DNA of 50,422 bases, the filler included, from Jimgerdemannia flammicorona (Eukaryota), in the NCBI GenBank assembly GCA_003990765.1. It is 2 parts of 2 records of this genome, joined end to end, with 100 filler letters (N's around TTAATTAATTAA, not from the genome) between each part and the next. Parts side by side here need not be neighbours in the genome. Positions count along the whole stretch, not along the records: positions 1 to 25,166 come from RBNJ01000872.1; 1 more part is not named here. The stretch is one strand, 5' to 3'. A model generated the notes under the pieces. That model did not search any database and was not told the DNA's origin. It saw only the letters and a program-made list of their open reading frames with translations. The position numbers and the translations under genes were made by a program. This document shows, piece after piece, positions 1-41,377 of this stretch (position 1 is its first letter; each line of letters opens with the position of its first letter).

Positions 1-88
1 GCTGTCTGGAGTTAGGAACTATCTAGTTCATACACAATCATGAATTCGGCTTATAATTTAAAAAGGAGGTCTGCTGAGGCGGCAGTGC

Positions 89-91
<3 letters not shown>

Positions 92-158
<67 letters not shown>
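92..158. repeat. Poly(T) tract, 67 nt (poly(A) on minus strand)
   Basis: Uninterrupted T run, followed by TTA/TTTTA-rich sequence that reads as several AATAAA hexamers upstream of the A tract on the minus strand. Confidence 0.95.
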
Positions 159-159
<1 letters not shown>

Positions 160-1128
160 TTATTATTATTGTTTCATCTTATTTTACTTTATTTTATTTT
201 ATTTTTAATAAGGAAAGTCGTCCAATTCGAAAAAGCAGTTGCAGGGCCCGACGGAAGGGGATAAGACAGGAGTGGCTTGGGGGTGATCGCTCACGGCTAC
301 CGGGCAAACCCGGGTTAATGGATTAACAAAGGATCTCATCACGAACCATGTTATAAAATCACGTCACATGGCATACTTGGTGTACACATATGTATACTTA
401 AATGTATGGCGAAGGTATTTAATGGTACGCAATGTACTGTACCAGGATTTTGTAATGTGCATGCGCCCGACTCTTCCAACAGCCGCCATTCCTGTGCTTG
501 GTCCTTCGGTAAGTTAAAATTCGCCAAGGGCCTGCCTAAGCTGTGCTTCACCATGAATATAATATCATATACTACTAACTACATGAGAAAATTCAATATC
601 CCATTGATCAGCAGGAAGCCTCTCTGAGCCATCTGTCGCTTTGTAAACCACATCTCGTATCCTTTTCTCATCTCACTTACATATATTAGCAAATACATAT
701 TGTCAACCCACTCATGTAACCAAATCAAAGGCCGGAGCGAAACCTTGATTATCGACCGCTTACGGAACTTGAAGCCGAGTTTGGTTGACTAAAAGGTATT
801 TAGTTTTGCATAATAACCTTGGTTGGGACCCGAGCCTTATACGTTGCATATACGTTGCATCGGAGGGGCGAGCCACATGGTCATACAATGATGACTACAG
901 GTGAAAGAAACAATGCAATATGCAATATGCATTATGCTTATCGAAATTAGATCATATATATATTATAACGCACATAATAGCATAGTTTATGATGCACTCA
1001 AACTATAATGGCTTGGTTCCGCTATCTCGAAAAACCCCGCATAGGCATAAGATGCGTAAGTAAATTGGATTCGTAGACATAAGGTGGAATGGTATGGATA
1101 TAAAGCATAAGCAGAGTACACAAAACAT

Positions 1129-3544
1129 CTATTCAAAATCATGAAATTGGAGTTGAAACCGAATCAAGCGCATGTCGGGGTCCTTCGAAGGCCAATAGAC
1201 TGAGGGATTTGCCTTTGTAATGATGTAATCCACACTGACCCGGCCCCGATTAATCAATGTCAGTAACTCCGATTTGAATCTCCCGAAATCCTCCTCGGTC
1301 TTGTTAAAGCGCTCTTCGACGAAGTCCCAGAATGTTGCCCAGTTCAAACGGTCGCAGTCTCTGCGCTTCACGGATTTGAGTCTTTTTAACAGTTCCTTGC
1401 GATTTTTACTGTCCGCGGGACACCATGCCGTGACCGCCACCTGCTTCTCTGGATCTGAGTTTGGGAACCGCAAGTCAAGCACCACGAAGCTGCCCCAGCG
1501 TTTTCGGTTCTTCACTAGAATGCGATCGTAGATCATCTGGATAAAGTGCACTATGAACACACCATACACCTTCATCATAGGGCTATTAAGGGATATTTTA
1601 TCTTCAAGAGGTGCGCGGAACGTGGAACGATCTCGTATGCTGCTAACGTCGTTTTGATGAACTGCATGGTGAAGGGGCGTGATGTTATTCTCTAAGTACA
1701 AGAGTTCCAAATTCTCCTCCTTGCCAAGCTTATGGTAGATATGGATCAGATCGCGTAACGATGTCATGGTGTCCTCGTGCCTTAGGCCGAGGGCTTTCTT
1801 GCGAATCTCCAGTGTCCGTCTGCCGTATGGCTCCGCGTCCTCGAACATTTGCTGGCTCGTATAGAAATATGATAGGTTGCTGAGAGCTGTCGCTGTATCT
1901 CGATGCTCTGGGCCGTTTGCAATCTCCGAGCTCGAAACGGCCAGCAGGGCAAAATCCTTGGCATCTTCGAAAAGAGCCTGTCGTGTGAGATAAAGGACGG
2001 TCGGCGACAGCAAAGACGGGAGCTCGTTTGAGATACCACGCTTCTCGGGGTCCCACAGCTTGAAATTCAAGATGACTTGTTGGATGTGTGGCATATAAAT
2101 CTCCATAACCCTTCTAAAATGTTCATAGTCTCCATGTTTAAAATTGGAAGGCACTTCGCGACTCAGCGCAGCGATGAGTCGCTTGCACCATTCGGGCTTT
2201 TCGGCATTGTCAATTTCGAGGCCTACAATGGTCTGAACGAGCCGATGAATTGAAACTTTTTCCCTGTAGACATCGCTATTGCTCAACTCAGTTGTGGTCG
2301 CCGCGATGCGGTGGACAAGGGAAGACGAGCACAATAAATTTATAGCCTTCTCAAGAGATCGCGGCGGAGGCTTGGCGGAATCAGGTAAAAAAATATGCTC
2401 TGGTTGTGCTCTGAAAAGTTGGAGTGGTATATTGTCCGGGTGAAGGAAGGCGAAGGCGTTGAGCAGATTGGCCGCGAAAGGGTTTTGGTCTTTAACGCGG
2501 GTGAAGCACATGTCCCAAGCAGTCCATACAGTGTGTACATAACTGTTACCCGTTACTTTCGTCAGTTCCTCCATATTTAGATATTCTTTCGGACTGTCTT
2601 TGAAATTCGTCAGGAACTCTACGGGTGTCAATCCGTCCTCTTCCATGCATGCAGCAGCCAAGTGTATTGCGAGAGGTAAATGACCTAATTCTTCAATGAT
2701 CAGCCGTCCAACTGAATCGTTTTCGGGGATGTTTTTTCGGAACAAAAGTTTCAATGCACTCTCTATATCCATTCTCACTTCATCCAAACTTATTACTGAG
2801 GTTTTGTGTTCAGCAACAGCATCACGAGACGTCAATAGGATATCGCCATCGCCTACGGTCGGATAAGAGTGGAGTATGAGTCTGTATACGCTTTCGTCGG
2901 CATTGTCGAACACCATAAGCCACCGTTTCCTTGCATCGTTGAACCACTGTTTCACCAGACTGATGTATACTGTCGGGTTTTCGATACCCTGGGTGGAGAG
3001 TTTGAGCAGCGTGGCCACCTTCAGAAAGCTGAAATTCAATGATTCCTCCGAATTGGCCATTATCCAGAAGACATACTGATACTTGGTAGGATAATTTCGA
3101 TAACAGTATTCCAGTGCAATCTGGGTCTTGCCCATTCCACCGAGGCCGATGAGAGCTACTCGCCCAAGGCTGCAGTTTTCCCTGTTGCCATCCAACAAAT
3201 GCTGCAGCTTTTCGAAAACATCTTCACGTCCCACGAATCGGTTGTTTCGCACCTCGGGTACGTCGAAAACTGGCACCAGTGGCCGACAGGCATCTGAACA
3301 GTTGTGAGCGACAGTGTCTGGGTTGCACACAGATAGATCAAGATTCCCACAGTTATTTTCATCTGGCTCATGTAGTCATTTGATCGCGCGCAATACATCA
3401 AATTAAATTCTCACCAAGATACAAGGTAGAATTGTGTATTTCCACGTTGTTTCCGGCAAAGGCAGTGCCACCATTGTCCGCTGTGGTCTCGCGTTCGAAT
3501 GTTGTATTACGAGGGCCCTTGGTACTTGAGCTAGATTCATCCAT
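1129..3544 (-). CDS. Fungal NLR-like STAND protein: short N-terminal motif, NB-ARC, TPR, ankyrin-like remnant and an extra C-terminal domain; exons 3415-3544 and 1129-3317, ~772 aa
   Basis: Motifs: RNNRFVGRE, Walker A GLGGMGKTQIALEY, Walker B WLMVFDNAD, ILLTSRD, LGHLPLAI, IHRLVQ, and kinesin-light-chain-type TPRs (GPEHRDTATALSNLSYFY; LGLRHEDTMTSLRDL). ATG at 3544 opens 43 codons + 1 nt; the intron GTGAGA...CCCAG (3414-3318, 97 nt) joins it in frame to the 733-aa ORF. Confidence 0.9.
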
Positions 3545-4598
3545 GGCTGGAATAATCAATTGCGTTCAAGTGTAAACCCGCAGCAATATTGGTGGTCGTA
3601 CAACGATTTTTGATCATCGAGAAAAGGCAGTCTCGCAACGGCTTGTGTAATCAATTCCTCGTGACCACCCAATGACGTCACAAACATGTGTACATATTTT
3701 TGGCTATTCAAATTATATTGTGCGGTTTTCAGCACACAGAATATTCCGGTTCATGCACACGGATCTCAAACTCGTCTAGTAGCAAATCCTCGATGTGCAA
3801 GCACACTTTTCGTCTTTGGGTATGACAAGCTCAATCACAGTATTGTCTAAATTTAAGCCGATTGGCGTGCTAAACCTGGTATTTATACTGCAGCGTTTGG
3901 AAACAATTGTTAAAGGGACCCCACTTGGAGCACGAGCTCGGTAATTATCACGTCAAGTAGTTGACCTGTGAAGATGGTTTAGTGCATTTGGGCGGATCAA
4001 ACGAAGATTCGGGCTCCATATAAACAACGTAATCGAATGCAGCAACGCACCATGCACCTGATAATCTACCGGTTGTATGCGGGATTACCCACCGCAAACC
4101 CTTCTCCGGCAGGCGGTTAATAAAAACCAAATCAGCATCACTCACACGCGCAAAATAGGTTCGTTTGTTCGAAAGCGGCCAGTTGCACTGCTAAGGATCT
4201 ACTTGAATTTATTTTAATGAGTAGAGAATATTTCAAAATTTACATAATAGTAAAGCTTACGTAACAATATTTGCAGTTTTCATTAAGAACTCAGCCCGAA
4301 CTGTTTTTGCTCTCTCAACGTAGTTCCATAGTATATTATTAGACATAAGCATATTGGAATATTATATCTACAAATATTTTGTAAAAAAAATCTGGTTACA
4401 TATTCTTGACATACAGCACTTGTAGTGCGAGCTTCATTGAAACTTAGAGATTCTTGGTTTAGCGTGGGATTTCGAACGATGTGGATATAACCTTAGGTCT
4501 ACAAAGGCTACACGCACCGTTCATGATGCTGTTTGTATTTCAATTAGGCATCCAACTGTTAAATTGTTCAATGACGCATATGTTCCACAACGAATTAT

Positions 4599-5126
4599 CT
4601 ATTGAAAGTCGTGAAATTGTATTTGAAAGCGAACCAAGCGCATTTCGGGATCTTTCGAAGAACAGTGCGCCGAGGGATTCGTCATTGTGCTGATGAGTTC
4701 CACACTGAGCCGGCCCCTATTCACCTTTGTCACTAGCTCGGACTTGAATCTTGCGAACTCTTTCTCGACTTGGGTAAAGCGCTCCTCGATGAAGTCCCAT
4801 AAGATCGCCCAGTCCAGGCGGTCACAGGCCCTGCTCTCCACGGGTTTCAGCTCTTTCAACATATCCTTTCGATTCTCAATGTCCGCGGGGAGCTTTTCTG
4901 TGGCCGCCACCAGCTTCTCTGGCTCCGAGTTCCGAAACCACAATTCCAGAATGAAACTGCCACTGACTATTTTTTTCTTCACTAGGGCGTGGTCGTAAAT
5001 CATCTGGATGAAGCGCGCTATGAACACACCGTACAGCTCCATCAAAGGGCTAAAGTGAGATACCTCTTCAGGAGATATGCGGGACTGATGTTTTGTGGCA
5101 CGGCGACGAGAGGATGTGTTTCCCAT
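4599..5126 (-). CDS. 175-aa protein of unknown function, paralogous to the NLR C-terminal domain; N-myristoylation-type start
   Basis: Intact ATG-TAG ORF. Residues 26-175 align with the last 151 aa of the NLR (about 92 identities, one gap, by hand), with many third-position differences. N-terminus MGNTSSRRR fits M-G-x-x-x-S plus a basic patch. Confidence 0.88.
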   Translation of the reverse strand: MGNTSSRRRATKHQSRISPEEVSHFSPLMELYGVFIARFIQMIYDHALVKKKIVSGSFILELWFRNSEPEKLVAATEKLPADIENRKDMLKELKPVESRACDRLDWAILWDFIEERFTQVEKEFARFKSELVTKVNRGRLSVELISTMTNPSAHCSSKDPEMRLVRFQIQFHDFQ

Positions 5127-6591
5127 GTTGAATTAGTTGAAAGGATAAGGCGTCGAATCAACCTAGGCCGGGAAAGTTTTATAGGACATTTAAGGCTGTG
5201 AAACCTTTATGAAATGTGACCGTATAATAGAGCGAGCCAAGATATTTGGCGTATCAAATTCCAATGATAAGTACAGCACAAGATGTTTCATTCCTCCTGA
5301 ACGACCGTTTGTACCTTCAATGAGAAAAAGAAAAAAAAATTAAAAGGGGTATGATTTCAGCATAATGTTCAGCTTTTCCTCTAATTCCACTGGCGACGCT
5401 TTGGAAGACAGGTGTTAAAAATGATAACACAAAGAAAAGTCGGGATCTAGGTTCACGGAGATACGTCGAATTAGGGTATCTATTTATACGTTATTGATAG
5501 AACACAAAAGTATCACCTCATGGAATGTGAATTCTATTTCATCCGAGCCGATCTGAAGCATCTTAATTGACTTTGTATCCAGCGGTATAAGTTTCCGACA
5601 GTATGTGCAATCTTCGTCTCAAACTATAGTAAAGAAGCAGTTGTTTTTTACCTCTTCTCGGGGGGTTTTTGACCTCTCCACGACTTTGCAGGCTACAACC
5701 CCGAATTCAAATTAAAATATCAACAAACGAGGCTCAAACGGTGAGCACCTCCGCGTGATAAAATTAGTTATTTTGTCCGCCCCTGAAATGTTCAGCATGC
5801 GGTATATCCACAGCTAATGTCCCCGAAAATTAGATTCATTTCCAATTTTATATAGTATCCGTTTGAACGGAGGTGCTGGTTATTTTGGAATGTGCCGGTA
5901 CGGTTTTCCTTGGCGCAGTCGAAACATGGAAGAGTATATACGCGGATCATCGATCGGCGAATTTGGACCATAAATGCCAAATTACCGATTGAGATTTTCT
6001 AGAATATTGAAAGCAACTCCGCAACCTAATTATCTCCCGTCTTTATCATCATTTACAACAGTTATCTGAGCTCATTTTGGGATGCCGTCAAGGGTGCTGT
6101 AACCAGGCACCTCTTATTTGCCGCATTTGCGGACGTGTTTATCCGTCGAGAGAGATGAGGATAATCTTGTGCATCGTCTGTCTGACATGACACAACCACG
6201 GGGCCGAAAACCTTAAATCGTCGGAGGGACAATGATTTTTTATTCGAACGCCGAATAACTGGATCAAGCCACGGCTAACAGACAGAAAGAAGGAAGACTA
6301 ATTCAACAAAACCGAGTGAGACTTTTGAAACAAGGACGGTGAAATTTGTAAAGGGCCTGCAACTTGTCGCCATTGCCAATTTTTCGTCTCTTGGTTGGTT
6401 TATACCTCTGCTAATGAATTTTGTTGCAAACCAACCTGTCGAGACAAAAATAGACATATTGAACGGATTCCTTGATTGGATGCGTTAATGCTATGTGTGT
6501 CTTGCCATGGCTTTCGGGAATCAAACCAAATATCGGATAAAAATCATCAATGATTTTGTCTCTTTTTATGTGAATAAAATTCCATCCCTAT

Positions 6592-8246
6592 TGTAACGAA
6601 TTGTTACATACACCTACAAGCCACTGGAAATTCCAACAGAAATTCCTATGGAATTTCTGACTAACAGTCATAGTTACCCAAAGTAGTATAACTATGTATG
6701 AACATATCCAGCACACTATATTTAGTCATAGCCTCAAATATATATAAATACTCACTATACTGAGAGCATTGTAACCTCAGCTCTGCTTTCTCCAAATATA
6801 AGAATAAAGTAGTATTCTTATCACAAAACCCTCAGACCTGACTTGTTAACAATTCTAAGCCTGATCAACTTAGGATATAAGTACAGTACTTTTATTAGTA
6901 TAAGAACCTAAAAGCAATACCTGAACTATATCATAACTGATAATTAGTACTTTCTTATAAGGACTTAGAACTTAGGGCTAATAGTTAGCTTAATTATCTA
7001 TAATATATTAATTCTATCAATATATAGCTTTATTATAATTTAGTAGTAGCAGAAGTTACTTCCCATCTACAAGTATGTAATCTTTCTTTAAAAATCTACT
7101 ATAGATAATTAGAACTAGTCAATATTACCAATATTGTCAGCAATAGTTAAGAAGTACCTTCACTCTTGATACTCTCTAGACTTAAGCTGAAGAATCTAAT
7201 AAAATCATTACTAAGTAGACCAAAATCCATATCAGTCAAGAGGAGTTTGATAAACTCAATAATGCAATCATCTAAAAAATATTCAATACTTTTCTTGCAC
7301 TCAACAAAGAAGTCTTCTATATCACTAAACTTAAGAAGAAATTTAATAAGCTAGTTGGCAGATACTTTCATAAAAAAAATATATAAAAATCTATTGAGAC
7401 TATAAGCAAACATTTTCTGAATCTTCTCTCCAATGATTGTCACTATAAAGTCAAGACCTTCCTGAACTATAAGGGATACTATACCTATTAAAAGAAATTC
7501 CACTTCTACTATCAAATTCTCTACATATAAGTGAGAATAATTCAGTAATAAAAATTACAAGCTGTTAGATCTAGTGAGACCTCCACTATATCATCTAGAT
7601 CTAGAAGGATAATTGAAGAGATATCTGAATCTAATATTGGCAATTTCAGTACTATTATAGAACCACTACTTAGAACATTAAGTTTATTGAAAATCATAGC
7701 AAATCTGACAGTTACCCTATCAAGACTATTAGCCTATAAGCTCACCTACCTCAGTAATGTCATAAAAGAGTCAATCCCAAATCACAATTGATATATCATA
7801 ATAATAGAAGAAGAACTCTAACCATCTCATCAAGCTGATAACAGAAATAGTAGAATAATATCAATAGATAACAAAATAGTAATACTAACTAACTAATAAT
7901 CATACTTACTCAAGCTCTTCATCTTAGTATTAAAACAAACAAATTTACAAAAGGTCTCCACCTTATATTATTCAAAGATAAAGTAGACTAAGTAATAATA
8001 TTTATAAATCAAGTTGATACTAATTATTATATCAATAGATGAAATAACAATTAGAACTCAGATAGTACTCTCAATAATAATGAATATTATAAGATTGAAG
8101 ACCTCTATATAACTATAGGCTTATAAGTAGAAAAAGTTATAATCCATTTCATAGACATAGCTATACAGTGATAGTATAATTTATTAGTATACCCTCTCAT
8201 CTGAGAAATCTATATAAAAATTGATGTAAGTTAAAAAGATAATAAT
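6592..8246 (+). mobile_element. Degenerate LTR retrotransposon (Ty3/Gypsy-like): 5' LTR and start of gag, interrupted by the hAT
   Basis: Starts TGTAAC where CpG content collapses, with TATA-like and AATAAA signals within ~230 bp. A stop-riddled frame resumes after the hAT. The LTR 3' end (~6825-6851) could not be fixed. Confidence 0.55.
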
Positions 8247-13891: not shown

Positions 13892-16584
13892 GGTACTTCT
13901 TGAGTCTGTTTTGATAGATAGTAGTAGGGATGATTGTGTCTGAGAGTTTTTATAGCCAAAAGGTGGTCCCTTTTATATCTTGTACAAGATAAGGTCCTTC
14001 TTACTTGGGCTCTAGTTTTTGTGACCATGAAGCTTCTACTATATTTTGATACACTAGGACTTTATCTCCTATCTTGATAATATCCAAGGGTTTGTGGGTT
14101 TTTTCCACATTCCTCCATTGTAGTGTCTGTGCCTTGGTTATGTAATCCTCAGCCTTCTTCCTAATTTGGTGTAGTCTCCATATTTCTGTATCCATATGTT
14201 TCCATACAGCATCTCTATTGGATGATAGAGTTCTCTGAGAACATTCTTCTCTGAATAGTATTTCTCGAGGGGTAAAGTGGGTGCTTTGTAATCAGATATC
14301 CTGGAGAGTGGATAATGCTATTGGCAGATAGTAATCCCAGTTCTCATAGTTATCGCAGATCTTAGCAATAATGTTCTTGAGGGTCTTATTGGTCCTTTCT
14401 ACTTGTCCATTTCCTTGAGGGTGATATGCTGTGGTCCAAATATGCTAGATCTTGTACTTCTTGTAGAGAACTTTGAAGAACTAGTTCACAAATTCTATTC
14501 CTCTATCTGTGGTTACTTGCAATGAGGTCTTGAATTGGTAGATGATTTCTTTGTGGAAGAAATCGGTGATTGACTATGCATTGGCTTCCATGAGGGGTCC
14601 TGCTTTTATCCATTTTGTAAAAAGGTCTACAATAACAATGATGTATCAGTTGCCAGTCAAAGTCAAGGGTAGAGGGCTGATTACATCCATTGCAATGTGG
14701 GCAAATAGTACTGGTTCTATGTGTGCTGATCCTGGGGCTCGATTTCATTGATCTTGTTTCTGTTTCTGGCATTTGTCACAGGTCTTGACAAATTGTCTAA
14801 TATCTTCCTCCATCCCTGGCCACTATATTGTTCTTCTTGTCTTGTCATATGTATTCATTCCTCTTAGATGGCCAAGTTCGTATATTGATTTCATTGCTTG
14901 CTCCTTCTTGTGTTCTGGTATGACTAGTAGTTTTCCTTTCTTCAGTATTTCTCCATCAGTTTCGAATTGTTTCCATGTTCTGTTGATAATCATTTGTGTC
15001 CATTCTTCCAGATGTTGGGGCATCTTTCACTGTCCCAGATACATGATAATTCCATAGTAGAGCTCCTTATTCATGATTGATTTGTTGGTTGGAAGTAGTT
15101 TGGGGTGTCCATGAGAGGGCATCTGCATTGGCATTGGTTCTTCCAGAGCAGTATATGATGGTTACATCATAAGCTTGTAACTTCATTATCCATCTGGCAT
15201 AGATTCCTTTGGGTTGTCTAGTTATCAGTAGTCAGGTGAGAGCTGAGTAGTCCATTTGGATGGTGAAGTATCTTCCAGCCAAGTAGTAGTGGAACTTTTC
15301 TACAGTCCAGATAACTGCGAGGCATTCCAACTTGTAGAATTCGTATTCTTTTTCAGCTCCTTGGGTTCTGCAGCTGAGGTATGCAATGACATACTCCACT
15401 TTATCTTTCTTTTGAGCTAGAACTGCTCTTAGTCCTTGTGCACTTGCATCAGTTTGTAGGATGAATTCTTGAGTCCAGTCAGGTCTTCTAAGGATGGGTG
15501 CCTGGGTCAGTCTAACCTTGAGTTCATCAAATGCTTTTTGTTGTTTGCCAGTCTACTGGAACTTGGTATCCTTCTTGTTAAGTTTGTAGATTGGTTCTGC
15601 AATATTAGAAAATCCTCTAATAAATCTGCAATAATAGAAGGTGAGTCCCATGAAGGCTTGGGCTTCTGTAACAGTGATGGGTCTTGGGTATGCTGCCACT
15701 GCTTCTATCTTGAGGGGGTCCGTGTGTATTCCATCTCAGTTGATGATGTGGCTGAGATAGGAGATCTCAATTTCTGCGAATTTGCATTTCTTGGGCTTGA
15801 TGTATAGGCCATGCTCTCTCAGTCTTTCCATTATCTGCCGGATGTGCTGCAGGTGTTCTTCTGGTGTCTGGCTGTAGATAATTATATCATCAACATAGAC
15901 CATCATCCATCTTCCCATATCATAGTGGAAGATTTTGTTCATTATTTGCTGGAAACTTACTGATACATTGCACATTCCAAATGGCATTCGTAGGTAGATG
16001 TAGGTTCCATCTGGGGTGATGAAAGCTGACTTTTCACTTGCCATGTCTGTGAGTCTAATTTGGTGGAATCCTGAGTATAAGTCCAAAGTGCTGTAGTACT
16101 ATGCTTCATCTCTCAGTATTATGAGGATGTTATTGATGAGGGGCAGTGGTTGGTGATCCTTCTTGGTAACCATGTTGAGCTTTCTGTAGTCAATACAGAG
16201 TCTTGGGGTGAATTCTCCAGGCTTGCTGCCTTTTTTCGGGGCTAGTACAACAGGTGAGAACTAGGGGTTGCTGGCTTCTTTAATGATGCTGGCTTCTTCT
16301 ATCTGCTTGATTTCTTCTCTGAGCCATTCTTGATAGGCTGGCGGGACAGGTCTTGCCTTCTGATAAATTGGTTCAGTGTCTCCAGTATCTACTTCATGAT
16401 AGTAGTGTGGGGTCTTTCCTTTGATATCTTTGAAATCTGTGGCAAGAACATCTTCAAATTCATGGAGTATTTCCTTGAGTTCTTTCTTGAGTAGAAATTC
16501 GTTTCTGATGGTGTAGCTGTGCTTGCTTGTGTTTTCCTCCTTCTTATGCTCGAGTTCGGTGATCTTGGTGCTGGCAAATACTCC

Positions 16585-17004
16585 TCTTCCTGTGGATCCA
16601 AATCCTTTCTTTTCTCTTTTCATTTCCTCCAGCTTTTTAGCTTCTATGATCTTTGGTTGTAGGATCGGAAAGATCAACATTTGTACCAATCAGTCCTTCT
16701 TCTTGACTGGAAATGGGATTGTAGGATTGTAATTCCTAGCAATAAGTAGAATTTCTCCAGTATAGTCTGAATCGATGACTCCTCCTTTGATTGTGATTTT
16801 GCTTCTAGCTAGGCTGCTTCTTGTCTTGAGAATCCCAATATGATCCTTTGAGATGGTCATCTCTAGTCCAGTTGTGAGTAGGGTGGTTGTCTGGGGTTTC
16901 AGTACAGTCTCTTCTACTGTAGCAATATCTATTCCAGCTGCATTTTCTGACTTGTATTCTGGCAAGACTGCATCAGGGTGGATCTTTCGAATCTTGACCT
17001 TGAT
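16585..17004 (-). pseudogene. dUTPase domain of Gypsy A, between protease and RT
   Basis: All five trimeric dUTPase motifs: AAGIDI, RSSLA, GVIDSDYTGE, VQML, KGFGSTG; one in-frame stop at 16690. Confidence 0.92.
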
Positions 17005-19174
17005 TTCTTCTTCATCATTACTGTCCTCTAGGAGGGCTGGTGGTTCATCATCTTCCTCCTTCTCTTCTTCTCTGATCTGTTTTTCAAGAGCTTTCTGCCT
17101 TCTTTCTTGGTAGATCTTCTTGATTCCGATGGTGCACTGGTAGCAATCATTGACATACTCCATACAGTATATCTTGATTCCATGAGGACAGACTCCTTGT
17201 GGGACATAACCTTCTGCAATCTTCTTGCACCATTCTTCTTTACTCATCTATCCAACTTTCTTCTTCTTTAGAATGGTCACCATATAAGCTTCCTCTTGCT
17301 CACTCTCTTCTTCCTCTATGTCAGGCAGGACTCCTTTGTTGACATTGATGGAAATTTATATCTTCTGTCCCTGGTAGGTGATCTGTATCTTCTGAGCATT
17401 GAGATCGATTACTGCCTTGGCTTTGTGAAGCCATTGATTGCTGATGAGGATGTCATAGTTGGTGGCATTGGTTACAATTATATTTACTGGGATGGTTGCT
17501 CCTCCAATCTTAATGGGAACATCTCGGATCTTTCCCAGAGGTGTGGCTCTTATGCCATCAGCTGTAACAAACACCAGCTTAGTTGCTTCTTCCACATCCC
17601 AACCTAGGCGGTCTGCTGCCTTCTTGCTGAGAAGACATCCTCCTGCTTCCATATCAATGATGGCTTCAAAGATTCTATCTTCGATTTGGCATATTGCATA
17701 AGCAGAGGTTTTGTGATTGTCCTCACTTTCTTCTCCTGAGTCCTCTTGAATGTTATTGGCCTTGGTTATCTTCCATTCTTATTCCTTAGTTGTTTCGGCA
17801 AGTCCAAACCTCATTTGCTGTCTGAATGTCGGGATTTCTGCGAGCTGACCAAAGGTTGCATTGACTTTTTGTTGACTGAGGTCCCTGAAGATATCATACT
17901 TGAAGGTCTTGGTCTTGTGAAGCTTCTTTTCTTTTTCTCCTTCACTGGCTGGAGTGGTTCCTTGGATGATATCTTGAACTACTTGCTCCAGCTCCATATC
18001 TTGGTCCATCTCTTCAGCTTGGCTTTCTGTAGCAGTTTCCATCTGCTTTTCCACTGGGTTCTTCTTGGGTCTTCCTGGCAGTCTCTTGTAGGGTTCTTTG
18101 CAAACATCCTTCTTGGTGGTCTGAGCAGGATAGGCCTCCTATTCCTCTTTATCGGATTCTCTGATTTCTTTAAAGGTAATTGTGTTGGCCTGTTTCTTAT
18201 TTCTAGTAGCATTGCTTGGTTGGGCCTTATGCTTAGTTTCACTCATATATTTGTATGAGTAGTGGCCTTCTTCTCCACAAGTATAGCAGGTGCCTTTCTT
18301 CTTGTCTGAGGTGGCAGCAAACTTCTGAACAGGGTGGCAGTCTCTTCCTCAAATTTCCTTTACCACATCTCCCAGGTGGGCAGTCATTTTGGCAAACCTT
18401 TTGGCAAGTTCCTCTATAGGGTCACTATTCTTTTGCTGCTCTGTAGCTTTTGGCTAAGGTGTGTTTTGATTAATCATTATGGTAGAGATCACACTGGTTG
18501 CCTTGGGTGCTTCAATTTTGACTCCCATGACCCTTTCCATTGTATGGTCTTGTGGATGTCTGGCTATCCAGTATCGCTGAGTATAGATGACCTTCTGTGG
18601 CAGATCCAGAATCACTGGTGATGAGCAGATGGCCATGGCTATCTCTGGGTGGACTCCTTTCATGAAGGTTGCTTTGGCTACTTGGTCTCAGATAGTATCG
18701 GCATAATCTGCAAGGATTAACTAATATTGGATTCTGGTGTAGAATGTGTTTGGATCTTTGCTCATTCCTTGGTATGTTGTATTGAGCTAATCCTTCAGAG
18801 CTTGCTTGATCTCATCTGTATAGTAGGTGTTTTTGAAGCCAGGTCTTCTGTGCTATCAGTGTAGCATCGGCATCATTTCCCACATAGTTTGCAGCTGTGA
18901 ATGCTGCTCTTGCAGGGCCTCATAGGCTAAAGGGCATAAGGGCTACTTGCTGTGCTGCTGTCAGGGTCCTTACAGTGGCATACTACTCAAAATCATCAAT
19001 GAAGGTGATGATTGATTCATCTGAGGTATATCTATAGAATACTGGTAGTCTCATATCCATCTTGTCTGGGTATTGGGGCTCAGTTTGTATGGTTGTTTGG
19101 GTAGTGGTAGTTGTTCATTGTTTAGCTTGAAAGTGAGGGATTCATCTTGAATCACTAGCCAATAGGCACCAAGT

Positions 19175-21564: not shown

Positions 21565-24500
21565 TTATTGTTGTTGTTGGTGGTCCCTGAATCCTGGCCG
21601 TAGCATAGGGTTGCTCGTAAGACACATTCCTTGTATGCAGTGTTCGAATTTTGGCCTCGGAAGGGCCTTCATAAGAGAATCCGCCATCATAGACTCTGTT
21701 GGCGTATATTCCAGGCGTATAGTACCGTTTTCCACGCATTCGCATATATAATGATGTTGAATGTCGATATGCTTAGTCCTTGCATGATGTAAAGGGTTCT
21801 TTGCTAATGCAATCGTAGATTGATTATCCTGTAAGATCAGCATAGAGTCTTGTTCCTGAGTATACCCTAATTCTTTTAGTAATTTCCATAGCCATATGGC
21901 TTCCTTAGTTGCTGTGGACAACGCTTGATATTCCGCTTGCGTAGAGGATGTGGCCACCGATGATTGCTTACGTGTTTGCCACGAGATAACCCCTTTGCCG
22001 ATATGGAAGAGATATCCGGTCGTAGAGCGCTGGTCGTCGAGGTCGCCGGCCCAATCGGCGTCGCAAGCTCCGGAGACATGCACGTGACTCCCGCTTTATC
22101 CTTTATCACCGCCCAAACTGAGCGTATAGTCTGCTGTTCCTTTGATGTACCTGAATATGCGCTTAATTGTCATCCAATGCGAGTTGTCATAGCATGAGGC
22201 GTACTGCGCCACTTTGTTTACTGCATAGGAGATGTCTGGTCGCGTTCCTTGCATAAGATACATAAGGGATCCCACCACTTATCTATAGGGGATGTTCTTG
22301 TCGGGCGTAGGGTCACTTTTCCTTAGCCTCGTCGTAGTTTCCATTGGTGTCGCCACTGGCTTACAATTGCTCATCCTGAATCGTTCAAGTACTTGCTTAG
22401 TGTAGGTGGCTTGGGATAGATGTATAGCACGCTTGTTTCTGTCACGTGTAATCGCTATCCCCAATAAGAAGGACACGTCGCCTAAGTCTGTCATCTCGAA
22501 TTCCTGGCATAGCATAGCTTTTACTTCATTAACTTGGCTCCTCTTGCCAATGATTATGATGTCATCGACCCATATCCCCAAGTATACCGTTCCTGAGGAT
22601 GTATGTCGCGTATATATGCATGGATCCGCTTCGCACTGCCGAAATCCGTTGTCAAGCAGATATTGATCGATCTTCCAATTCCATAGTCTCGCCGCTTGCT
22701 TGATTCCATATAACCCTTTACGTAGTTTGCATACGAGCTCTTTCCGCCCGTCGTATAGTTCGTATCCTTGCGGCTGTTGGACGTATAGTTCCGTATCTAC
22801 ATCACCGTTCAGGAACGCAGTCTTAACGTCCATCTGCTGTATTTCGTAATCGTACTCGGCGCCGATAGCCAGTAGTATGCATAGAGAAGTGAGCTTGAAT
22901 ACGGGAGAGAACTTCTCGTCGTAGTCTATGCCGTAATTCTGTGAATATCCCTTAGCAATGAAGCGTGCCTTGTACCGCTCTATGCTTCCATCGCTTTGAC
23001 GCTTAACTTTATATACCCAACGAGATCCTATAGCTTGACGATCCCTCGGAAGAGGTACTAGATCCCAAGTACCGTTGCTGATGAGCGAATTATACTCTTC
23101 ATTCATCGCTCGCTTCCACTCCTTGCTATCAGGGGAGGATACAGCTTTGTCATATGATCGTGGATCCACCGTTGTCAAGTATGTGCACTCGCAAGCGTAG
23201 TTCACATGATGCTTGTGTCGGGTCTTCGGAACATTCCAATAGTCTCCTAGATCTGTATCCAATGTCCTGGATTTGCGCTTTTGTTTACCTTTCGTAGATG
23301 GGAGAATCGTCTCCGCTTCACTAGTCTCATCATTGCTATCCCTTATCTCAGTTATCCTCGGTCCAGGAGGTGGCGAATGAATCCTCGCCAGGATAGGTGA
23401 CATTTTCGGGGGTGTCTTCAGGGGTGTGACTGGAGGACTTGCCGGAGGCGTAGTACTGGCCGCCGGAGGCGTAAGATTGATTGCCGGGGGCGTTCCCGGA
23501 AGCGTATGTGTAATCGTAGTCATCTTCTCAATATTCACGTGTGAATCCTGTATGCCGGGTTCCTTGAATGTAACGTCATGGGAGTTAACAATTCTCTGCT
23601 TCCTTGGATTCCACAGCCTATACGCTTTGCAACCGTTGCTATACCCGAGGAACACATGCTTAGTAGCCTTTGGATCAAACTTATCCTTATTTCCGCTTTT
23701 ATCTAGCACGTAGGCTTCGCTTCCGAATATGCGTAGATGTGAGATATCGGGCCGATTTCCACTCCATAGCTGATGTGGCGTAGCATTATCCTCGTTCCTG
23801 GATTGCTGATTGTTGCCACAAGCATCCTTGCTTAGAGCTTGAGAAATATACCTATTGCGTATATACACTGCCGTATTCACCGCTTTGGCCCAAAAGGGCT
23901 TCGATAGATCGGCCGCGTTGAGCATTGTACGGGCCATCTCTACTACCGTTCGGTTAAAACGCTCCGCTACGCCGTTCTGCTGAGGCGTATAGGGAGCCGT
24001 CGTTTGGTGTTTTATCCTGTGTCTCGTCAAGAAGTTCTTGAACTGATTATTAACGTACTCCTTGCCGTTATCTGAGCGTAGTGCTCGAATTTTACGTCCG
24101 GTCTTGTTTTCGACGATAGCCTTATATTCTCCGAATTTTTCCAAAGCTTCGCTCTTCGCCGCCATAAGGTATACGTAGACCTTGCGCATATAGTCGTCGA
24201 TGAATGTAATAAAATACTTCTTCCCGGAGTGTGATTTATTTCTCACAGGTCCCCATACATCTGAGTGTACCAAATCGAGTATCCCTGAGGCTCGTTTTGT
24301 CCGTTCCTGGAAGGGTTGTTGACAGGCCTTGTTCATCGTGCAATCATCACATGGCATATGGTCCGGGCATAAGTTGTCTGGGAGTCCGCTCACCAAACCG
24401 TTCCTTATCATACGTTCGAGGCTTGTCGGGCTGATATGTCCGAGTCTCCGGTGCCAGGTATACGCTACGCTGGTCGTTCCAGACCACGCTGCATTCACCG

Positions 24501-25166
24501 CAGCTACGCCACTTAGCGTTCCGTTTATTGCATATAAGTATCCATGCTTCCTGGTCGTTAATGCTTCTTTGCCATCGAGATCGTATATCTTCACGCCATC
24601 GCACGTTCCTGAGATTCGCTTATCCCCTCATGCTAGCGTTCGACCCATCGAGAAGAGGTTCTTTCCTATCCCTGGAGTGTACAGTACGTCCATAAAGGTC
24701 GCATAGGGTTCCTTAACGTTTCCATGCAAATACATGCCGACGTTGCCCTTCCCCTGAGTATATATAACCTTATTATCACCCAATCTGATATGCACGGGGT
24801 TGTCAAAGGGTTCGTACATAGAGAACCACTCGTGGTGTGAAGTCATATGCTGGGATGCGCCCGAATCTAGGAGCCAGATGTCCTCTTCGTCGCATGCAAT
24901 ATTAGCGCTCGGTGTATACTCGTCTCTGGCGCTGGCGCACATGCTGTTTACGTCACCGCCACTTTTCGCACCTTGAAAAGTATTCCGAATGTCGGGTTCC
25001 GTAGATGTCGAGCAAGCGCATTTGCAGGTAGAACTGGCGCTGGTGGATGTAGAACTAGATCTCGTAGATGTCGGGGTGGCTTGCGCATTTTTCACCGGTC
25101 CAAAAGGGTCTGAATCTACATCAGCGAAGAACAATCCTCCCTTATCGGCGTTAGAATCTGCGCTAT
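21565..25166 (-). pseudogene. Copia pol polyprotein with three in-frame stops
   Basis: WLLDSGASQHMT; WHRRLGH...CDDC; HSDVWGP, RSDNGKEY, QNGVAER; QMDVKTAFLNG, WVDDII; CDADWAGD. Stops at 24628, 22279 and 22096 lie in one frame. Confidence 0.93.
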
Positions 25167-25266
25167 NNNNNNNNNNNNNNNNNNNNNNNNNNNNNNNNNN
25201 NNNNNNNNNNTTAATTAATTAANNNNNNNNNNNNNNNNNNNNNNNNNNNNNNNNNNNNNNNNNNNN
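25167..25266. other. Artificial gap/contig spacer: 44 N + TTAATTAATTAA + 44 N
   Basis: Symmetric N runs around a linker with stops in all six frames. Confidence 0.97.
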
Positions 25267-25413: not shown

Positions 25414-27977
25414 ATGAGGTTCCCCCCAACTCTGATAGCACCGGCACTCTCCACGGAGACATCGACGGCGACAATGTTATTATTGCCAAACCAATCTGCG
25501 CAGACAGGTGATTGCAGTCCAAAAGCGAATCGCACAAGTCAAGAAAACTCCAACAACACCAATCACCCTACCGACTTTACGCAAATTATCCCGCCAGGCA
25601 TCACCCCCGCAACATTTGCCTCGCATACCACTACCCTGCGTACTTCGCTCCTTAACGTCCTCCCAACCTGGCCGCATGACACTCATCTCTTAATGTCACC
25701 GTACCCAATCTACACCCCTCCTCACCGGCTGGCTGAAATCCACACCCTTTATAGCGCTCTACACCCCGCACTTCTCGGACTCGTAAAGGCATGGTGGACC
25801 AGGCCGGAACTATACCTTTCCATTCCCGTCCCCGAGAAAATCGAGAGGGTATTGAGAAGGCTAGAAGATATAAGGAAGTTCGAGAGAGTTGGGAGTATTA
25901 GACCGGATTTTATTGTGCCGGAGAAGCAGGGAGAGTCGGTGCGGATATGCGAGATAAATGCGAGATTTATGTTTAATGGGTATTTCACAGGGACATTGCA
26001 TGGAGAGGGGATAGAAGATGCAGGGAGGGGATGGTGTAAAGACAAAGGATACTCGGTTGGTGGTGATGTGGTATGTATTCATTCTCTCCCAGTTCACTCC
26101 ATGCTGGTCTGAACATATAGGCTTTTTCTCGTAGCTATACACTGGCTCTCTATTATCACCAACTAACATTCACCGCTTTCTGTAGGAGGAATTGAAGAAG
26201 CACTTTAGCACACTGTTCGACTCAAACAAACCTATCGCCCTCGTGACAGGCAGAGAAAACCGAGCTCCCTGGGATCTCGACATCGTATGCCACATGTATC
26301 CCACCTCTCGCATCGTCGCTTCCGGTGACCTCCATCTTGTTCGACCCACCACGGAGCACGGAGTTGACACAGTAGTCCTCGCGGATTCTCATGGTCCGCT
26401 CAACCAATTCCTGCTTGAGCTACACCAAGATGAGATTGAGTTGCTAGATGAAGAGGTTTTATTTGAGTTGGGTAAACATTGCTGGAATGATCTGAGGACA
26501 ATATATTTGATTCACGATAAGCGCATTTTGGGTCTCATCCGCCGAGAGCTCAAGTGGCTTGTTGACACTGGCAAAATTACGAGAGAGCATGCCGAAATAT
26601 TGAGGAATGGATTGGCGGAGACGTATATTCTCGATGAAGCAATGTGCCAGGATCTCTTGACGAATATGAAGTCTGGGGATAAAGACCAGTGGACGCTGAA
26701 GAAGGCCAGATCGGGAAAGGGGGATGGAATGATGTTCGGGAAGGACATGGATGATGGGACGTGGAGGGGGTTAATTGAGAGGTATTCGGCGAGCGCAGGA
26801 AAGGTCGGTGAGGAGGCTACGGTGCCGTACGTGTTGCAGAGGTATGTGAGGAGTAAAAGGCTGGATTTATTCATTCATGATACGAGTGCAGGAAAGAATG
26901 TGATGATGAAGAGAGTGAGGTGGAACGTTGTCGGTATGGTGCTGTGTATCGACAGAATCTTGTTTCCGAATACCATGTGGCGAGCCAATCAGACTGATAT
27001 TGTGGCCCTGGGGAGGTCGGGGCAGGCGTTTGCCGGTGTGGGGATGAGAGAAGAAATGAGGACATTTACGGTGCCGGCGACACGAAGGGAACTCGTACCA
27101 TTAAGGAAGCTAGTATTGCCTTCAGGAGCGCGAGTCCAGGCTCCCGTAAAAGATGGCCATGCAAAGCAAGCTGAACAGGTGAAGAGGGCGCTGGAGAAGG
27201 ATGGGTTGGCGGTGGTCGATCTTGGATTTGAGGATAAGGACAGCGCATATATGGTGGCGTTAACAGGCATGTTGGGCAAGCCACTCGATCATTCATCGAA
27301 GCAGGGCATTTTGTGGGATGTGAGGCCAGTGGAGGGACTGCATGCAGGGAATGCGGCCAGATCTGAGACGATGGAGCCATTCCCGTGGCATACAGTATGT
27401 ATAGTTTTCCCACATCAAGTGCATATGCAAAACGGTAGCCAATGATAATAATCTTGCTGTTTCTCTGCGATTCCAGGACTGTTCTTTCGAATGCGCTCCA
27501 CCACGCTACTTCGCCTTACACATCCTCCATCGAGACCGCTTCGGTGGCGGCAACCTTCGCCTCCTCCATGTTGATTCCCTGCTTCCCAATCTCTCGTCCA
27601 CCACAATGGAAACCCTTCGCCTGCCTCAGTTCAAGCTTCTGGTTCCCAAGGAATTTCGCAAAGACGTCGGCTACATCGTTGGTTCGCTTCTCATGACCGA
27701 CCCTTTCACGGGCCACCAGAAACTCCGCTATAGAAGAGAGATTATTGAGCCGCTGAGTGTTGAGGCGGAAAAGGCGTTGATGGAACTGGAGGAGTGGTTG
27801 GGGAGGGTTGATGCAGCTGGGGAACATGGTCCAGTAAGGGTTCTGGGGGACGACGTGATGAGGAATGGCACAGTGGTGTTGTTGGATAATATGAGGTGGT
27901 TGCATGCGAGGAGTCCCGTGAGAGATCCGCAGAGATGGTTGAGGAGGGTGAGGTGGGCGCCGGAAAGGTTTGAGTAG
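25414..27977 (+). CDS. ATP-grasp-like ligase fused to a TauD/TfdA-family Fe(II)/2-oxoglutarate dioxygenase; exons 25414-26070, 26186-27394, 27477-27977, ~788 aa
   Basis: Phase-0 introns GTATGT...CTAAC...TAG and GTATGT...CAG join three ORFs; splicing builds FPWHT|DCSFE (HxD). Distal LLDNMRWLHAR and RWLRR. N-terminal RPDF, ICEINAR, HDKRIL, LKKARSGKGDG, YVLQRY. The start codon is not certain. Confidence 0.88.
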
Positions 27978-38170: not shown

Positions 38171-41100
38171 CTTTAACTATGACTGGTGCTGATGGTGTCG
38201 GAATTCAGCCAGGGTATGAGGGTGACTGGTTCCAGGCCTTGAGTTGTGATATATGGAATACTGGGTGTATATGCATGGTTGTTGGCAAGTTGAGATGATA
38301 AGACCAGGTGGAGACTTGCTCAGTGATCTCAAAGAGTCCAAGGTACTTGGGCTGAAATTTGGCTGACTGGCAGTTGACTTGAGATTGAGCCTTGATGTTG
38401 TCAGCTTTGAGTAGAACCATATCATCAATATTATATATGACATCTCACTGCTTCTTATCTGCATACTTAGCTTGATGTTGCTGAGCCTTTTGCAGGTTTG
38501 TAGTGGCAATCTTGAGAAGGGAATCCATTTTGTCAATAAGGTTCTGGGCTGTAGGGACTTGTGTGTAACTGGATTGCTGGAATGAGACTAGGCTTGCAGG
38601 GGTCTTGGGATTTTGACCATGAAGTAGCTGAAATGTGGAAAGGCCAGTTGATGATTGGGTGACATTATTGTAGGCAAACTCAGCATAGGTCAGATAGTGG
38701 TCCCAATCATCTTGCTCATAAGACACATAGTTTCTGAGCATTTGTTGGAGTGTTCTGTTCATTCGCTCAGTCTGTCCATCAGTTTGAGGATGGAAGGTAG
38801 TAGATATAGCAATTTGAATTCCAAGGGTCTTGAAGAGTGCTTGCCAGAAGTGGCTTGTGAACTAAGGGTCATGGTCACTGATAATTACTCAGAGAAGTCC
38901 ATAATGGTGGAAGACAGTCTTGAAGAAGATTCTTGAAATTTCTGGGATAGTGGTATTGGTTGTGATTGGCTTGGTAATTGTAATCTTAGTGAGATGGTCC
39001 ACAAACACAACAATAGCATCATAGCCTGTTCTGGTTCATGGAAGTTATACAATGAAGTCTATTGTGACTTGTTTGAACTTCTTGATTAGAATTGGTAGAG
39101 GTTGCAGAAGACCAGTGGGTGCTTGGTTGCTTGGCTTGTTTCTTTGGTAAAGATTGCAGCTTTAGACATACTCCTTGATTTCCTTGAGCATGCTTGGCCA
39201 GTAGTAGTCTCATTGGATATTCTTGACAGTCTTCTCAGTTCCAAGGTGGCCAGCTAGTGGAGAGTCATGATGTTCATGAAGAATCTTATACTGTAGTTCA
39301 GGGTTAGCAGGAATATATACTTTGTCTTGATAGTACATGAGGTTGTCCTTGATAGTGTACTTTTCCTTGAATTCCTTGATGTTCCTTTTTAGAACCAGAG
39401 AGTCTTATTCATATGCCTTCTTGATCTGATTGAGGAATTCAGGTGCCACAGTGACTTGTAAAATTGCGTCTTCTTGAAAGTGCATCTGGTACAACTAGAG
39501 TTTTGCCAGGCTTGTAGATGAAGTTTGGGGTGAAGGTCTGAAGTAGTTGACTCCACTTGGCTTGTTAGTGAGAAAGGGTTGGTTGAGTGTTGATGTACTG
39601 AAGGGATCTGTGATCAGTGATCATATCAAACTCAACTCCTTCTAGGTAGTGTCGCCAGGTCTTGAGGGCATGCATGATCGCCAGAAGTTTTTTTTCATAA
39701 GTAGCCAGCTTTTGTTCGGCTGGGGACAATTTTCTTGACTCAAAGGCAATAGGTTGGTGTCCTTGACCATCATCTTGAGAAATAACTGCACCAATAGCAA
39801 AGTTAGATGTATTTGTAGTAACTATGAACTTTAAGTTTGGGTCCATGTTTCTAAGGACAGGTGCATGGATCAGGCAGTTCTTGAGTTCTTGAAAAGCTTG
39901 TTAACAGAAAGCATCCCAGATGTAGGGGACATAGAGGTTGGAGTTGGGTTCCTTTCACAGGAGATTTGTCAAAGATTCTGCAATGCCAGAGAAGTTCTTG
40001 ACAAATTGATGATAGTATCCAGCCAGACCAAGGAAGGATCTGAGTTCAGTGAGGTTTGCTGGTACAGACCACTGTTAAATGGCTTGTATTTTCCTTGAGT
40101 CTACTTTAATTCCTTTGGCTGATACAATGTGTCCAAGGTATTCAACTTAATCCTTGAAAAATTCACATTTCTTGAGCTTTGTGTAGAGCTTGTTCTTGTG
40201 GAGGATCTTGAGGACTTGTTCAATATGCTTGAGGTGTTCTTCTTCAGTGCTACTGAAGATCAGGATGTCATCAATGTATACAAGTATAAAGATATAGAGC
40301 TGATTCTTGAAGACAGTTTGCATGAGATCTTGAAAGGTTGCTGGTGCATTGGTGAGACCAAAGGCCATGACTAGAAATTCATAGAGTCCAAAGGGTGTCA
40401 TGAAGACAGTCTTGGGTATGTCTTCTGGCTTGATTCGAATTTGGTGATACCCAGAGGTGAGATCAATCTTAGTGAAGTACTTTGCATTCTTGAGAGCATC
40501 AAAGATTTGATCTATGAGTGGTAGCGGATAATGGTTCTTGACTGTGATCTTGTTGAGTGCTCAGTAGTCTATGTACATCCACAGAGTATCATCCTTTTTC
40601 TTGACAAATAGGACTGGGGAGCCAAAGGGTGACTTGCTTGGCTGAATGGCTCCTTGCTCAATAAGTTCATTGAGTTCCTTCTTGACTACTTCAATTTCGA
40701 GTAGAGACATATGATACATTTTCTTCTTAGGTATAGCTACATCAGGTACCAACTTGATTTCGTGATCATGGTCTCTTGAAGGTGGTAGACCAGGTAGTTT
40801 GTCCAGGAAGACATCCTTGTACTTGTTCAGTAGTAACTTGATGCTTTTACTAATTGATAGCTTCTTGTCTTCTTTCTTTGGTCGGATCAGTACCACAAAG
40901 ACACAGGTAGCTTTCTTGAGGGCCTTCTTGAACTGAATTGCTGAAAGGGTAGCAATTGGGGTTTTCATCTGAGTCTTGTCTGGCTTGATGGTAATGTTGG
41001 TTCCATCCTGAATCAGGGTAACTTTATTCTTGGTCCAATCAATCTGAGGGTTGTATCATATAAGCCAGGGTTTGCCTAGGATTAGGTCATGGTCTCCTAG

Positions 41101-41377
41101 TGGTGCTATCTCAAAATCTAAATGTTCCTAGTACTTCTGGATCTTGAGATGGAGTTTAGTAGCAATTGAGTCAATTGATAAGGTAGTGCCATCTGCATTG
41201 ACAACTCTACCATTCTTGCTGGCTGGTTTGGTGAGAATCTTGAGCTTGTTGATGAGGTTCTTGTTGATGAAGTTCCCAATAGCTCCACTGTCTATGAGAA
41301 CATCTAGCTCTTGTCTCTTGACTAGACCTTTGAAAATGAGCATTGAATTGGCTCAGTTCTCAGCTATGCTTGCAACT

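Follow-up and report, generated by a model that had tools for sequence, protein, structure and literature searches.

An NB-ARC receptor of Jimgerdemannia flammicorona carrying a copy of an orphan gene at its C-terminus: a candidate integrated domain in sensor position

Domains integrated in plant NOD-like receptors (NLRs), like the HMA domains of RGA5 and Pik-1 or the WRKY domain of RRS1, are the best handle of plant biologists on the targets of pathogens. Plant sensor NLRs are typically encoded as a genetic pair with a helper NLR. In fungi the notion of integrated domains is recent and, in the part of PMC12258605 available to us, it is based on domain annotation alone. This survey reports 185 non-canonical domains in 378 NLRs of Sordariales, among which nine T-NACHT NLRs ending in a kinase domain similar to PRD-4 are proposed to be integrated decoys. 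The characterised partnerships of fungal NLRs presented in the excerpts of PMC10197012 and PMC9815663 are the NWD2/HET-S amyloid pairs and the guard-type pairs het-e/het-c and plp-1/sec9. NLRs are rare and barely described in Mucoromycota. The survey excerpted from PMC7928374 detected neither NACHT nor NB-ARC in its six new genomes and in 14 NCBI proteomes of Mucoromycotina, and the counts across fungi in the available part of PMC12258605 go down to one NLR in species of Mucoromycota. Here we analyse a window of 50,422 nucleotides of the mycorrhizal fungus Jimgerdemannia flammicorona (Endogonales, Mucoromycota; assembly GCA_003990765.1), composed of two parts of the assembly joined end to end by 100 filler letters with N runs at 25167-25210 and 25223-25266, the first of which (positions 1 to 25,166) comes from record RBNJ01000872.1. 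Two co-oriented genes of its minus strand, coding for an NLR and, upstream of it, for a small protein, share a domain that we call X. The ancestral C-terminal sensor of the NLR appears to have been deleted and replaced by an in-frame, 5'-truncated copy of X. Literature searches on Jimgerdemannia NLRs and on Endogonales NB-ARC yielded no account of this fusion, the supplementary tables of PMC12258605 aside.

The NLR gene (3544..1129, -) has one intron and codes for a 772-long protein with no internal stop, its stop codon lying at 1129-1131. Its 3' frame of 748 codons from stop to stop (1129..3375, -) and the intact 175-codon open reading frame (ORF) of the stand-alone X gene (4599..5126, -), 1055 bp upstream of the NLR start codon, are found where a first, sequence-only reading of this DNA had placed them. 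That reading proposed a common C-terminal domain of 151 residues with about 60% identity by hand alignment. When the NLR tail is compared with the small ORF by BLASTP, the match proves slightly longer, with 93 identities (59%) and 121 positives in 157 residues, one gap and E 1e-69, and extends over 1132-1602 and 4602-5069, respectively. At the DNA level 347 of 468 coding bases (74%) are identical across 156 aligned codons. The similarity begins around codon 16-20 of the small ORF, possibly at position ~1620 in the NLR, and, as the first reading had it, halts at the stop codons, fading within a few bases beyond them into unrelated flanks. Also as proposed, both copies end in FHDF followed by one residue and the stop codon. 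The integrated domain X is delimited to 1132..1602 (-), 157 residues that form a 5'-truncated copy of the small-gene family. No other copy of X is present in the window (tblastn with both proteins; next matches at E of at least 0.34).

The ATG of the small ORF is found two codons past an in-frame stop. Its first 19 residues (5070..5126, -) exist only in the stand-alone protein, and the BLASTP match does not begin until residue 20. This N-terminus reads MGNTSS and continues with a basic run, a combination that we take to resemble an N-myristoylation and polybasic membrane signal. The small gene has no annotation in the protein collections searched.

Differences between the two copies of X are distributed as 39, 27 and 55 over codon positions 1, 2 and 3, with a dS of 0.77 and a dN of 0.23, in line with the intact frames and many synonymous changes noticed before. 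The dN/dS of 0.30 (bootstrap 95% interval 0.18-0.50) is not that of neutral copies, although a pairwise value cannot tell which of the two bears the constraint. Neutral evolution was simulated 5000 times per setting, with indels ignored. With d set to half of dS (0.38), the frame was kept open in 0.98% of the simulations for the NLR tail and in 1.2% for the small ORF; at d = 0.2 about 5% stay open. The dN/dS and the rarity of open frames under neutral drift indicate that neither copy looks like a drifting relic. Both look constrained, most likely by purifying selection since an old duplication. Antisense frames of 100-123 codons are also open on both copies (1229-1531 and 4627-4998, +). They are a by-product of sense codon usage and not a second gene, since third positions coincide and the differences follow the codon-position pattern given above.

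Transcript data were taken from two runs, X1 and X2, as Logan contigs aligned to 1000-5300. In X1 a contig of 503 nt without mismatches (record 6) joins 3569-3415 to 3317-2970, skipping 97 nt with GT..AG borders on the minus strand; X1 holds cDNA because this contig is spliced. A second contig of X1 (record 4, 744 nt, 1 mismatch) is unbroken from 1486 to 2229 and spans the two breakpoints at 1690 and ~1620 that are described below. Record 1 of the same run (336 nt, 0 mismatches) covers 1169-1504, and record 13 of X2 is an exact match to 1641-1798. The X1 contigs together run unspliced through the fusion point from 1169 to 2229 with no insertions or deletions reported. The sequence-only reading had called for a transcript check of the fusion across 1500-1750, and none of the transcripts ends or splices before 1584. 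X1 differs from the window by A>T at 2505 and T>C at 2312. These F-to-I and H-to-R changes are the same that separate the public model P0122 from the window, which indicates that X1 represents a second genotype carrying and transcribing the fused frame. The fused frame of this genotype is 99.9% identical and free of indels, and the fusion is thus not unique to one assembly. The depth of NLR contigs in the runs is 3-9, and neither run covers the intergenic 3592-4311.

Two public models exist for the NLR. P0003, labelled partial, is 100% identical over 51% of the NLR query, skips the P-loop and ends in ...NLEL before the X tail. P0122 (579 residues) belongs to the same 90% cluster, has three amino-acid differences from the window and ends early in ...TMTSE. 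Since both models end ahead of domain X (regions 1129-1702 and 1129-1760 for P0003 and P0122), searches of protein collections are blind to the fusion, and proteome-based surveys of NLRs would miss such an architecture.

The downstream gene is an NB-ARC STAND/NLR protein. Its NB-ARC domain (2638..3222, -; residues 52-246 of the 748-codon frame) matches Pfam PF00931 above the cut-off with E 7.5e-9, and the motifs Walker A GMGKT, Walker B-like LMVFDNAD and GHLPLA are intact in translation. It is followed by DUF7779 (2203..2490, -; PF25000, E 5.1e-9, residues 296-391), the helical/winged-helix part after NB-ARC. The only TPR units that remain, about one or two of type TPR_10/TPR_12, are found at 1720..1899 (-; PF13424 E 3.3e-13, PF13374 E 5.4e-11, residues 493-552). 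Together with an ankyrin relic of 22 residues they make up the whole C-terminal repeat content of the protein, and the arrays of its relatives P0005 and P0006 are absent. The domains of the NB-ARC-TPR protein with a tail that had been read from the sequence are present, but no intact repeat sensor precedes X, the ankyrin array having been replaced.

Exon 1 of the NLR (3415..3544, -) starts with the ATG at 3544 and comprises 43 codons plus one base. It is supported by the spliced contig and by P0003 and P0122, whose first 43 residues are identical to those of the window NLR. The spliced X1 contig defines intron 1 (3318..3414, -) with 97 nt, GTGAGA...CAG borders and phase 1. P0122 uses an alternative in-frame acceptor after 3363 that gives a 52-nt intron (3363-3414, -). 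Both splice forms keep a single open frame, of 772 residues with the 97-nt intron and 787 with the 52-nt one, and the two acceptors create a difference of 15 codons between the N-terminal motif and NB-ARC. The 43 residues of the exon carry a short motif without recognised effector domain and have no match in Pfam, PADLOC or NCBIfam. The motif (3416-3544) shares 14 of 27 residues with the N-terminus of the paralogue P0004 (E 7e-8). The exon may be a short signalling motif conserved among paralogues with different C-termini, and its presence in P0004 despite the different C-terminus of this protein makes the N-terminus the likelier signalling end.

Of 8000 candidates scored against the NLR protein, 260 had E <= 0.001, with proteins of Jimgerdemannia flammicorona as the best matches. 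The NLR is 44-81% identical to the NB-ARC proteins P0002, P0004, P0005 and P0006. Paralogue P0002 (81% identity over 545 residues) is collinear with it up to residue 562, ...LYLE, and BLASTP to this protein positions the first breakpoint at 1690..1701 (-). Past LYLE, P0002 and P0004 run into a Sel1-like end that is absent from the window NLR. P0006, a Logan protein 44% identical to the NLR, has the same Sel1-like segment and then a long ankyrin array, and P0005 (46% identical, 932 residues) has a long TPR array. A remnant of ankyrin repeat 1, 22 residues long, is recognised at 1621..1686 (-) when this stretch is aligned locally with the beginning of the ankyrin array in P0006. The alignment score is 74, against 18.6 +/- 4.1 for shuffled sequences, and none of 5000 shuffles reaches 74. 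The homology to X starts directly after this remnant. In this clade the NOD module is conserved and the C-termini vary between Sel1-like, ankyrin, TPR and X.

The simplest origin that we infer would be a tandem arrangement X - NLR - X' in which the NLR was a receptor of the NB-ARC-TPR-(Sel1-like)-ANK type. Both frames would have been joined when the stretch between ankyrin repeat 1 and approximately codon 16-20 of X' was deleted, with loss of the Sel1-like segment and of nearly all the ankyrin array. The same deletion would have stripped X of its MG...basic segment, a possible membrane anchor.

Under the opposite polarity, the small gene would have arisen by partial duplication of the NLR 3' end and gained a start codon of its own. 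This polarity is compatible with the tandem, co-oriented copies, with a few matches that MAFFT puts upstream of the core (S5, S6, R8), and with the lack of an outgroup in the databases searched, which leaves polarity unproven. We hold it very improbable. A derivation of residues 1-18 of the small protein from the NLR linker is unsupported, as their similarity is not significant (17% of shuffles score equally). Moreover, the relatives of the NLR end in ankyrin, Sel1-like or TPR and never in X, none of the 120 relatives listed covers more than 81% of the NLR query, and independent X paralogue transcripts exist.

The deletion could also have joined a degenerating NLR to a tandem duplicate of X as a mere by-product. 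The gene would then be transcribed with no receptor function, and the apparent constraint would come mostly from the stand-alone lineage or from the time before the fusion. The sensor repeats are nearly gone with half an ankyrin repeat left as a scar, the transcript depth of 3-9 is low, the locus is an island amid transposon-rich and AT-rich DNA, and the pairwise dN/dS is not assignable to a branch, all of which agree with such an accident. We consider it unlikely all the same, in view of a frame of 772 codons that is open with intact NB-ARC motifs, of an X tail that stays open in just ~1% of neutral simulations, and of the conservation of the fused frame without indels in the second genotype.

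Outside Jimgerdemannia and a few other records, the nearest relatives of the NLR (~27-32% identity) are mostly bacterial, with the addition of Sordariales fungi. The bacterial ones include proteins of Ktedonobacteraceae, Gimesia and Nonomuraea, and many have XRE-HTH or TIR N-termini. Endogonales NLRs may have been inherited vertically or acquired by transfer.

Domain X is not confined to the pair. Many short contigs of X1 and X2, 90-95% alike, align to the X parts of both genes (1144-1585 and 4600-5051). Among all contigs aligned, the 29 of X1 fall into classes of >=99%, 95-99% and 90-95% identity with 10, 4 and 15 members, and the 21 contigs of X2 with 3, 6 and 12. The depths of single X paralogue contigs reach 715-1439, with bin sums up to ~2000, versus 3-9 for the NLR, and they account for the X1 depth in bins 4888-5175. 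Some contigs switch between the X copies at homologous positions (joints 1224>4706, 1343>4983 and 1515>5001). The loose 3' ends of paralogue contigs begin at the stop codon and are mutually different (X1 1155; X2 1120, 1130 and 4519), and two loose 5' ends, inspected by eye on the minus strand, still code for X-like peptide. To us these contigs represent three or more additional transcripts of X paralogues from elsewhere in the genome, far more abundant than those of the NLR, none of which is found in the protein collections searched. X is a real expressed gene family whose coding part is conserved and whose untranslated regions diverge, unlike a transposon. The sequence-only reading regarded the tail as an integrated copy of the neighbouring gene. 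It is an in-frame copy of the X family, but the neighbour is not the sole member and neither donor nor target need be the adjacent gene.

The abundance of these transcripts bears on another explanation, in which a repeated, mobile or virus-derived element would encode X as its ORF and a fragment of it would have been inserted to form the NLR tail. Many contigs of 90-95% identity at very high depth on both copies, some of them switching copies, are what a multi-copy family would give. In addition, neither of the two public proteomes of J. flammicorona, both of which are within the searched collections, includes an annotated member of X, and the surroundings are rich in retrotransposons. We find this explanation quite improbable. 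Positions 1-8000 contain no inverted repeats, their sole direct repeat is formed by the two coding copies, and neither long terminal repeats nor shared flanks are present; the suspicion of a transposon fragment raised by the first reading thus meets no transposon hallmarks around either copy. The similarity is limited to a coding frame under purifying selection, and the paralogue transcripts have unrelated 3' flanks from the stop codon on. No match to a transposase, reverse-transcriptase or viral family was obtained for X, and no relative was found in viral contigs.

Domain X is an orphan that none of the searches made could link to a family, a structure or a homologue, which agrees with the first reading, where no family had been recognised. 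Pfam has nothing above threshold and at E <= 10 proposes just the sub-threshold MksE and DUF2264. Searches of PADLOC, NCBIfam and PHROGs gave no significant match, the PDB profile search has a best E of 1.4, and the ESM Atlas holds no usable match for either copy. Word-indexed protein searches provided 28 candidates at near lengths and 247 at longer lengths, with no homologue among them. The sole phmmer match over 1.84 billion representatives, P0001 (E 1.2e-4, 4 stretches), was rejected as chance because a short acidic/lysine motif repeats four times in this unrelated repeat protein. Pattern scans for X yielded 242 pattern matches in metagenome contigs, 54 in viral contigs (IMG/VR) and 146 in prokaryote genomes, with no relative in any of the three. 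A degenerate-motif scan gave 20 loci, likewise rejected, in which tblastn aligned only the selected motif (best 30 residues, E 0.002). AlphaFold2 on the two-copy alignment of X reached a mean predicted local distance difference test value (pLDDT) of 41.2, too low for comparing folds, with a tentative alpha/beta secondary-structure pattern. Complex prediction for the NLR tail and the small protein scored 0.00 and, with the partner fold uncertain, counts neither way.

We tentatively favour the reading that domain X is an integrated sensing module of the receptor, acting as a bait or as an X-binding part, because it sits at the sensor position of NLRs. An integrated domain in sensor position is supported by the data, and a guard or decoy role, which the first reading proposed along with that of a homotypic sensor, is plausible. 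The X tail could bind the ligands of free X proteins, as a bait of the integrated-decoy type. Alternatively its binding partners could be the X-family proteins, so that the receptor would keep watch on a host protein that is abundant and possibly attached to the membrane. Activation would lead to oligomerisation of NB-ARC and to signalling via the conserved short N-terminal motif.

Several points weigh against a sensing role of X. Its position is the sole argument for it, and the orphan status of the domain offers no family to compare with. The NLR, with almost no repeats and no recognised effector domain, could be a decaying receptor. No second NLR or paired helper is found in the 50-kb window (tblastn of the NLR; other matches at E of at least 2.6). 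The constraint measured pairwise cannot be placed on the receptor copy or on the stand-alone one. As for expression, the databases do not register X1 and X2 as RNA; that they are is deduced from a single spliced contig, and none of the contigs listed matches the small gene 4599-5126 exactly. Finally, with other X paralogues so abundant, the neighbour is neither the sole partner nor necessarily the donor, and the adjacency of the X gene and the NLR may simply reflect tandem duplication.

A different use of X would be homotypic signalling, in which the clustered X tails of the oligomerised NLR recruit or template free X executioners, possibly myristoylated and membrane-directed. CARD/PYD adaptors, including the C-terminal CARD of NLRP1, and NWD2/HET-S follow a similar logic. 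A whole domain common to an NLR and to the adjacent small protein is, in the excerpts of PMC9815663 and PMC3321046, the genomic signature of fungal NLR-effector pairs. The presence of the MG...basic N-terminus on the free copy and its absence from the NLR copy, the lack of a recognisable N-terminal effector domain in the NLR, and the abundant free paralogues among the transcript contigs would fit as well. The characterised fungal pairs described in these excerpts share, however, a short amyloid motif between the N-terminus of the NLR and the C-terminus of the effector. Here the shared part is a 157-residue domain at the C-terminus of the NLR, predicted with low confidence to be globular-looking and alpha/beta. 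The N-terminal exon of the NLR is dissimilar to the small protein, with no BLASTP alignment between them at E <= 100, and the conservation of its motif in P0004, a protein of other C-terminus, suggests N-terminal signalling. These features leave homotypic signalling a low probability. Also considered was a HET-s-type resemblance of the N-terminal motif to the C-terminal part of X, which is rich in beta-strands; it is unsupported, no alignment being obtained. Pfam detects no HeLo-type or other effector family at the locus.

A bolder proposal, to which we likewise give little credit, sees in X a new module of immunity or cell death specific to the Endogonales lineage. The free proteins would be abundant, N-myristoylated and attached to the membrane, and the NLR copy would be an anchor-less bait or a homotypic docking domain. 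If true, the locus would represent a guard/guardee or receptor/executioner pair operating via whole-domain homology without amyloid motif. Plant integrated-decoy NLRs, or else CARD-type homotypic signalling, would then have a fungal counterpart that arose independently in an early-diverging mycorrhizal lineage.

The two-gene locus lies inside an island of normal GC content (~40-49% GC, 1-6500), with AT-rich, retrotransposon-laden DNA around it. The retrotransposon remains are all on the minus strand (21568-24627, 15739-18138 and 38448-42260) and comprise one copia-type pol (RVT_2, rve, gag_pre-integrase) and two gypsy-type elements (RVT_1, Ty3 capsid). One gypsy-type element is adjoined by a dUTPase-domain ORF (16693-17247). 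A long T-rich low-complexity run at 40-264 (+) translates as poly-Phe and poly-Leu. The region 26186-27974 (+) holds a 419-codon open frame without family match and then a frame with a C-terminal TauD/TfdA dioxygenase fragment, whose E of 8e-6 is just under the Pfam cut-off. This region may be an intron-containing dioxygenase gene.

The locus provides a compact and testable case in a lineage with few described NLRs: a transcribed receptor whose sensor appears swapped for a copy of an orphan gene, with evidence of constraint and with abundant paralogues as possible guardees or executioners. Its closest parallel is with plant NLR-IDs (NLRs with an integrated domain; concept in the available part of PMC12258605). 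Like them, it has an in-frame non-canonical domain on an NB-ARC NLR that duplicates a stand-alone host gene, and X lies outside the NOD module, where recognition occurs. Unlike them, it has no head-to-head helper NLR in the window, and X replaces the repeat sensor instead of being added to it. The stand-alone homologue is also an adjacent tandem gene of an orphan family, in a Mucoromycota host, and X is not known to be the target of a pathogen effector.

The NLRs of Sordariales with PKinase, SPRY or zinc finger domains also have a C-terminal domain homologous to a non-NLR gene, which the available part of PMC12258605 proposes as decoy or extra sensor. According to the same text, however, these domains belong to known Pfam families and the nine PKinase NLRs keep a complete canonical architecture. 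Their kinase homologue is there a single-copy core gene located elsewhere, whereas X of J. flammicorona is an orphan with its homologue next door, in a protein that lost most of its repeats.

With the NWD2/HET-S pairs, as given in the excerpts of PMC3321046 and PMC9815663, the locus has in common an NLR adjacent to a small, maybe membrane-directed protein with a homologous segment. In those pairs, however, the segment is a motif of ~20-40 residues at the N-terminus of the NLR and the C-terminus of the effector, unlike the 157-residue domain at the C-terminus of the J. flammicorona NLR. HET-E/HET-C and PLP-1/SEC-9 (excerpt of PMC10197012) offer the parallel of a fungal NLR proposed to watch a host protein. 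In these cases receptor and guardee are unlinked, with no homology between them, and the guardee is seen via WD40 or TPR repeats, whereas the J. flammicorona NLR contains a copy of its candidate partner. With an orphan domain, a lost canonical sensor, no nearby helper and a homologue in the adjacent gene, we rate the locus not as a member of any characterised system but as a variant of the NLR-ID type.

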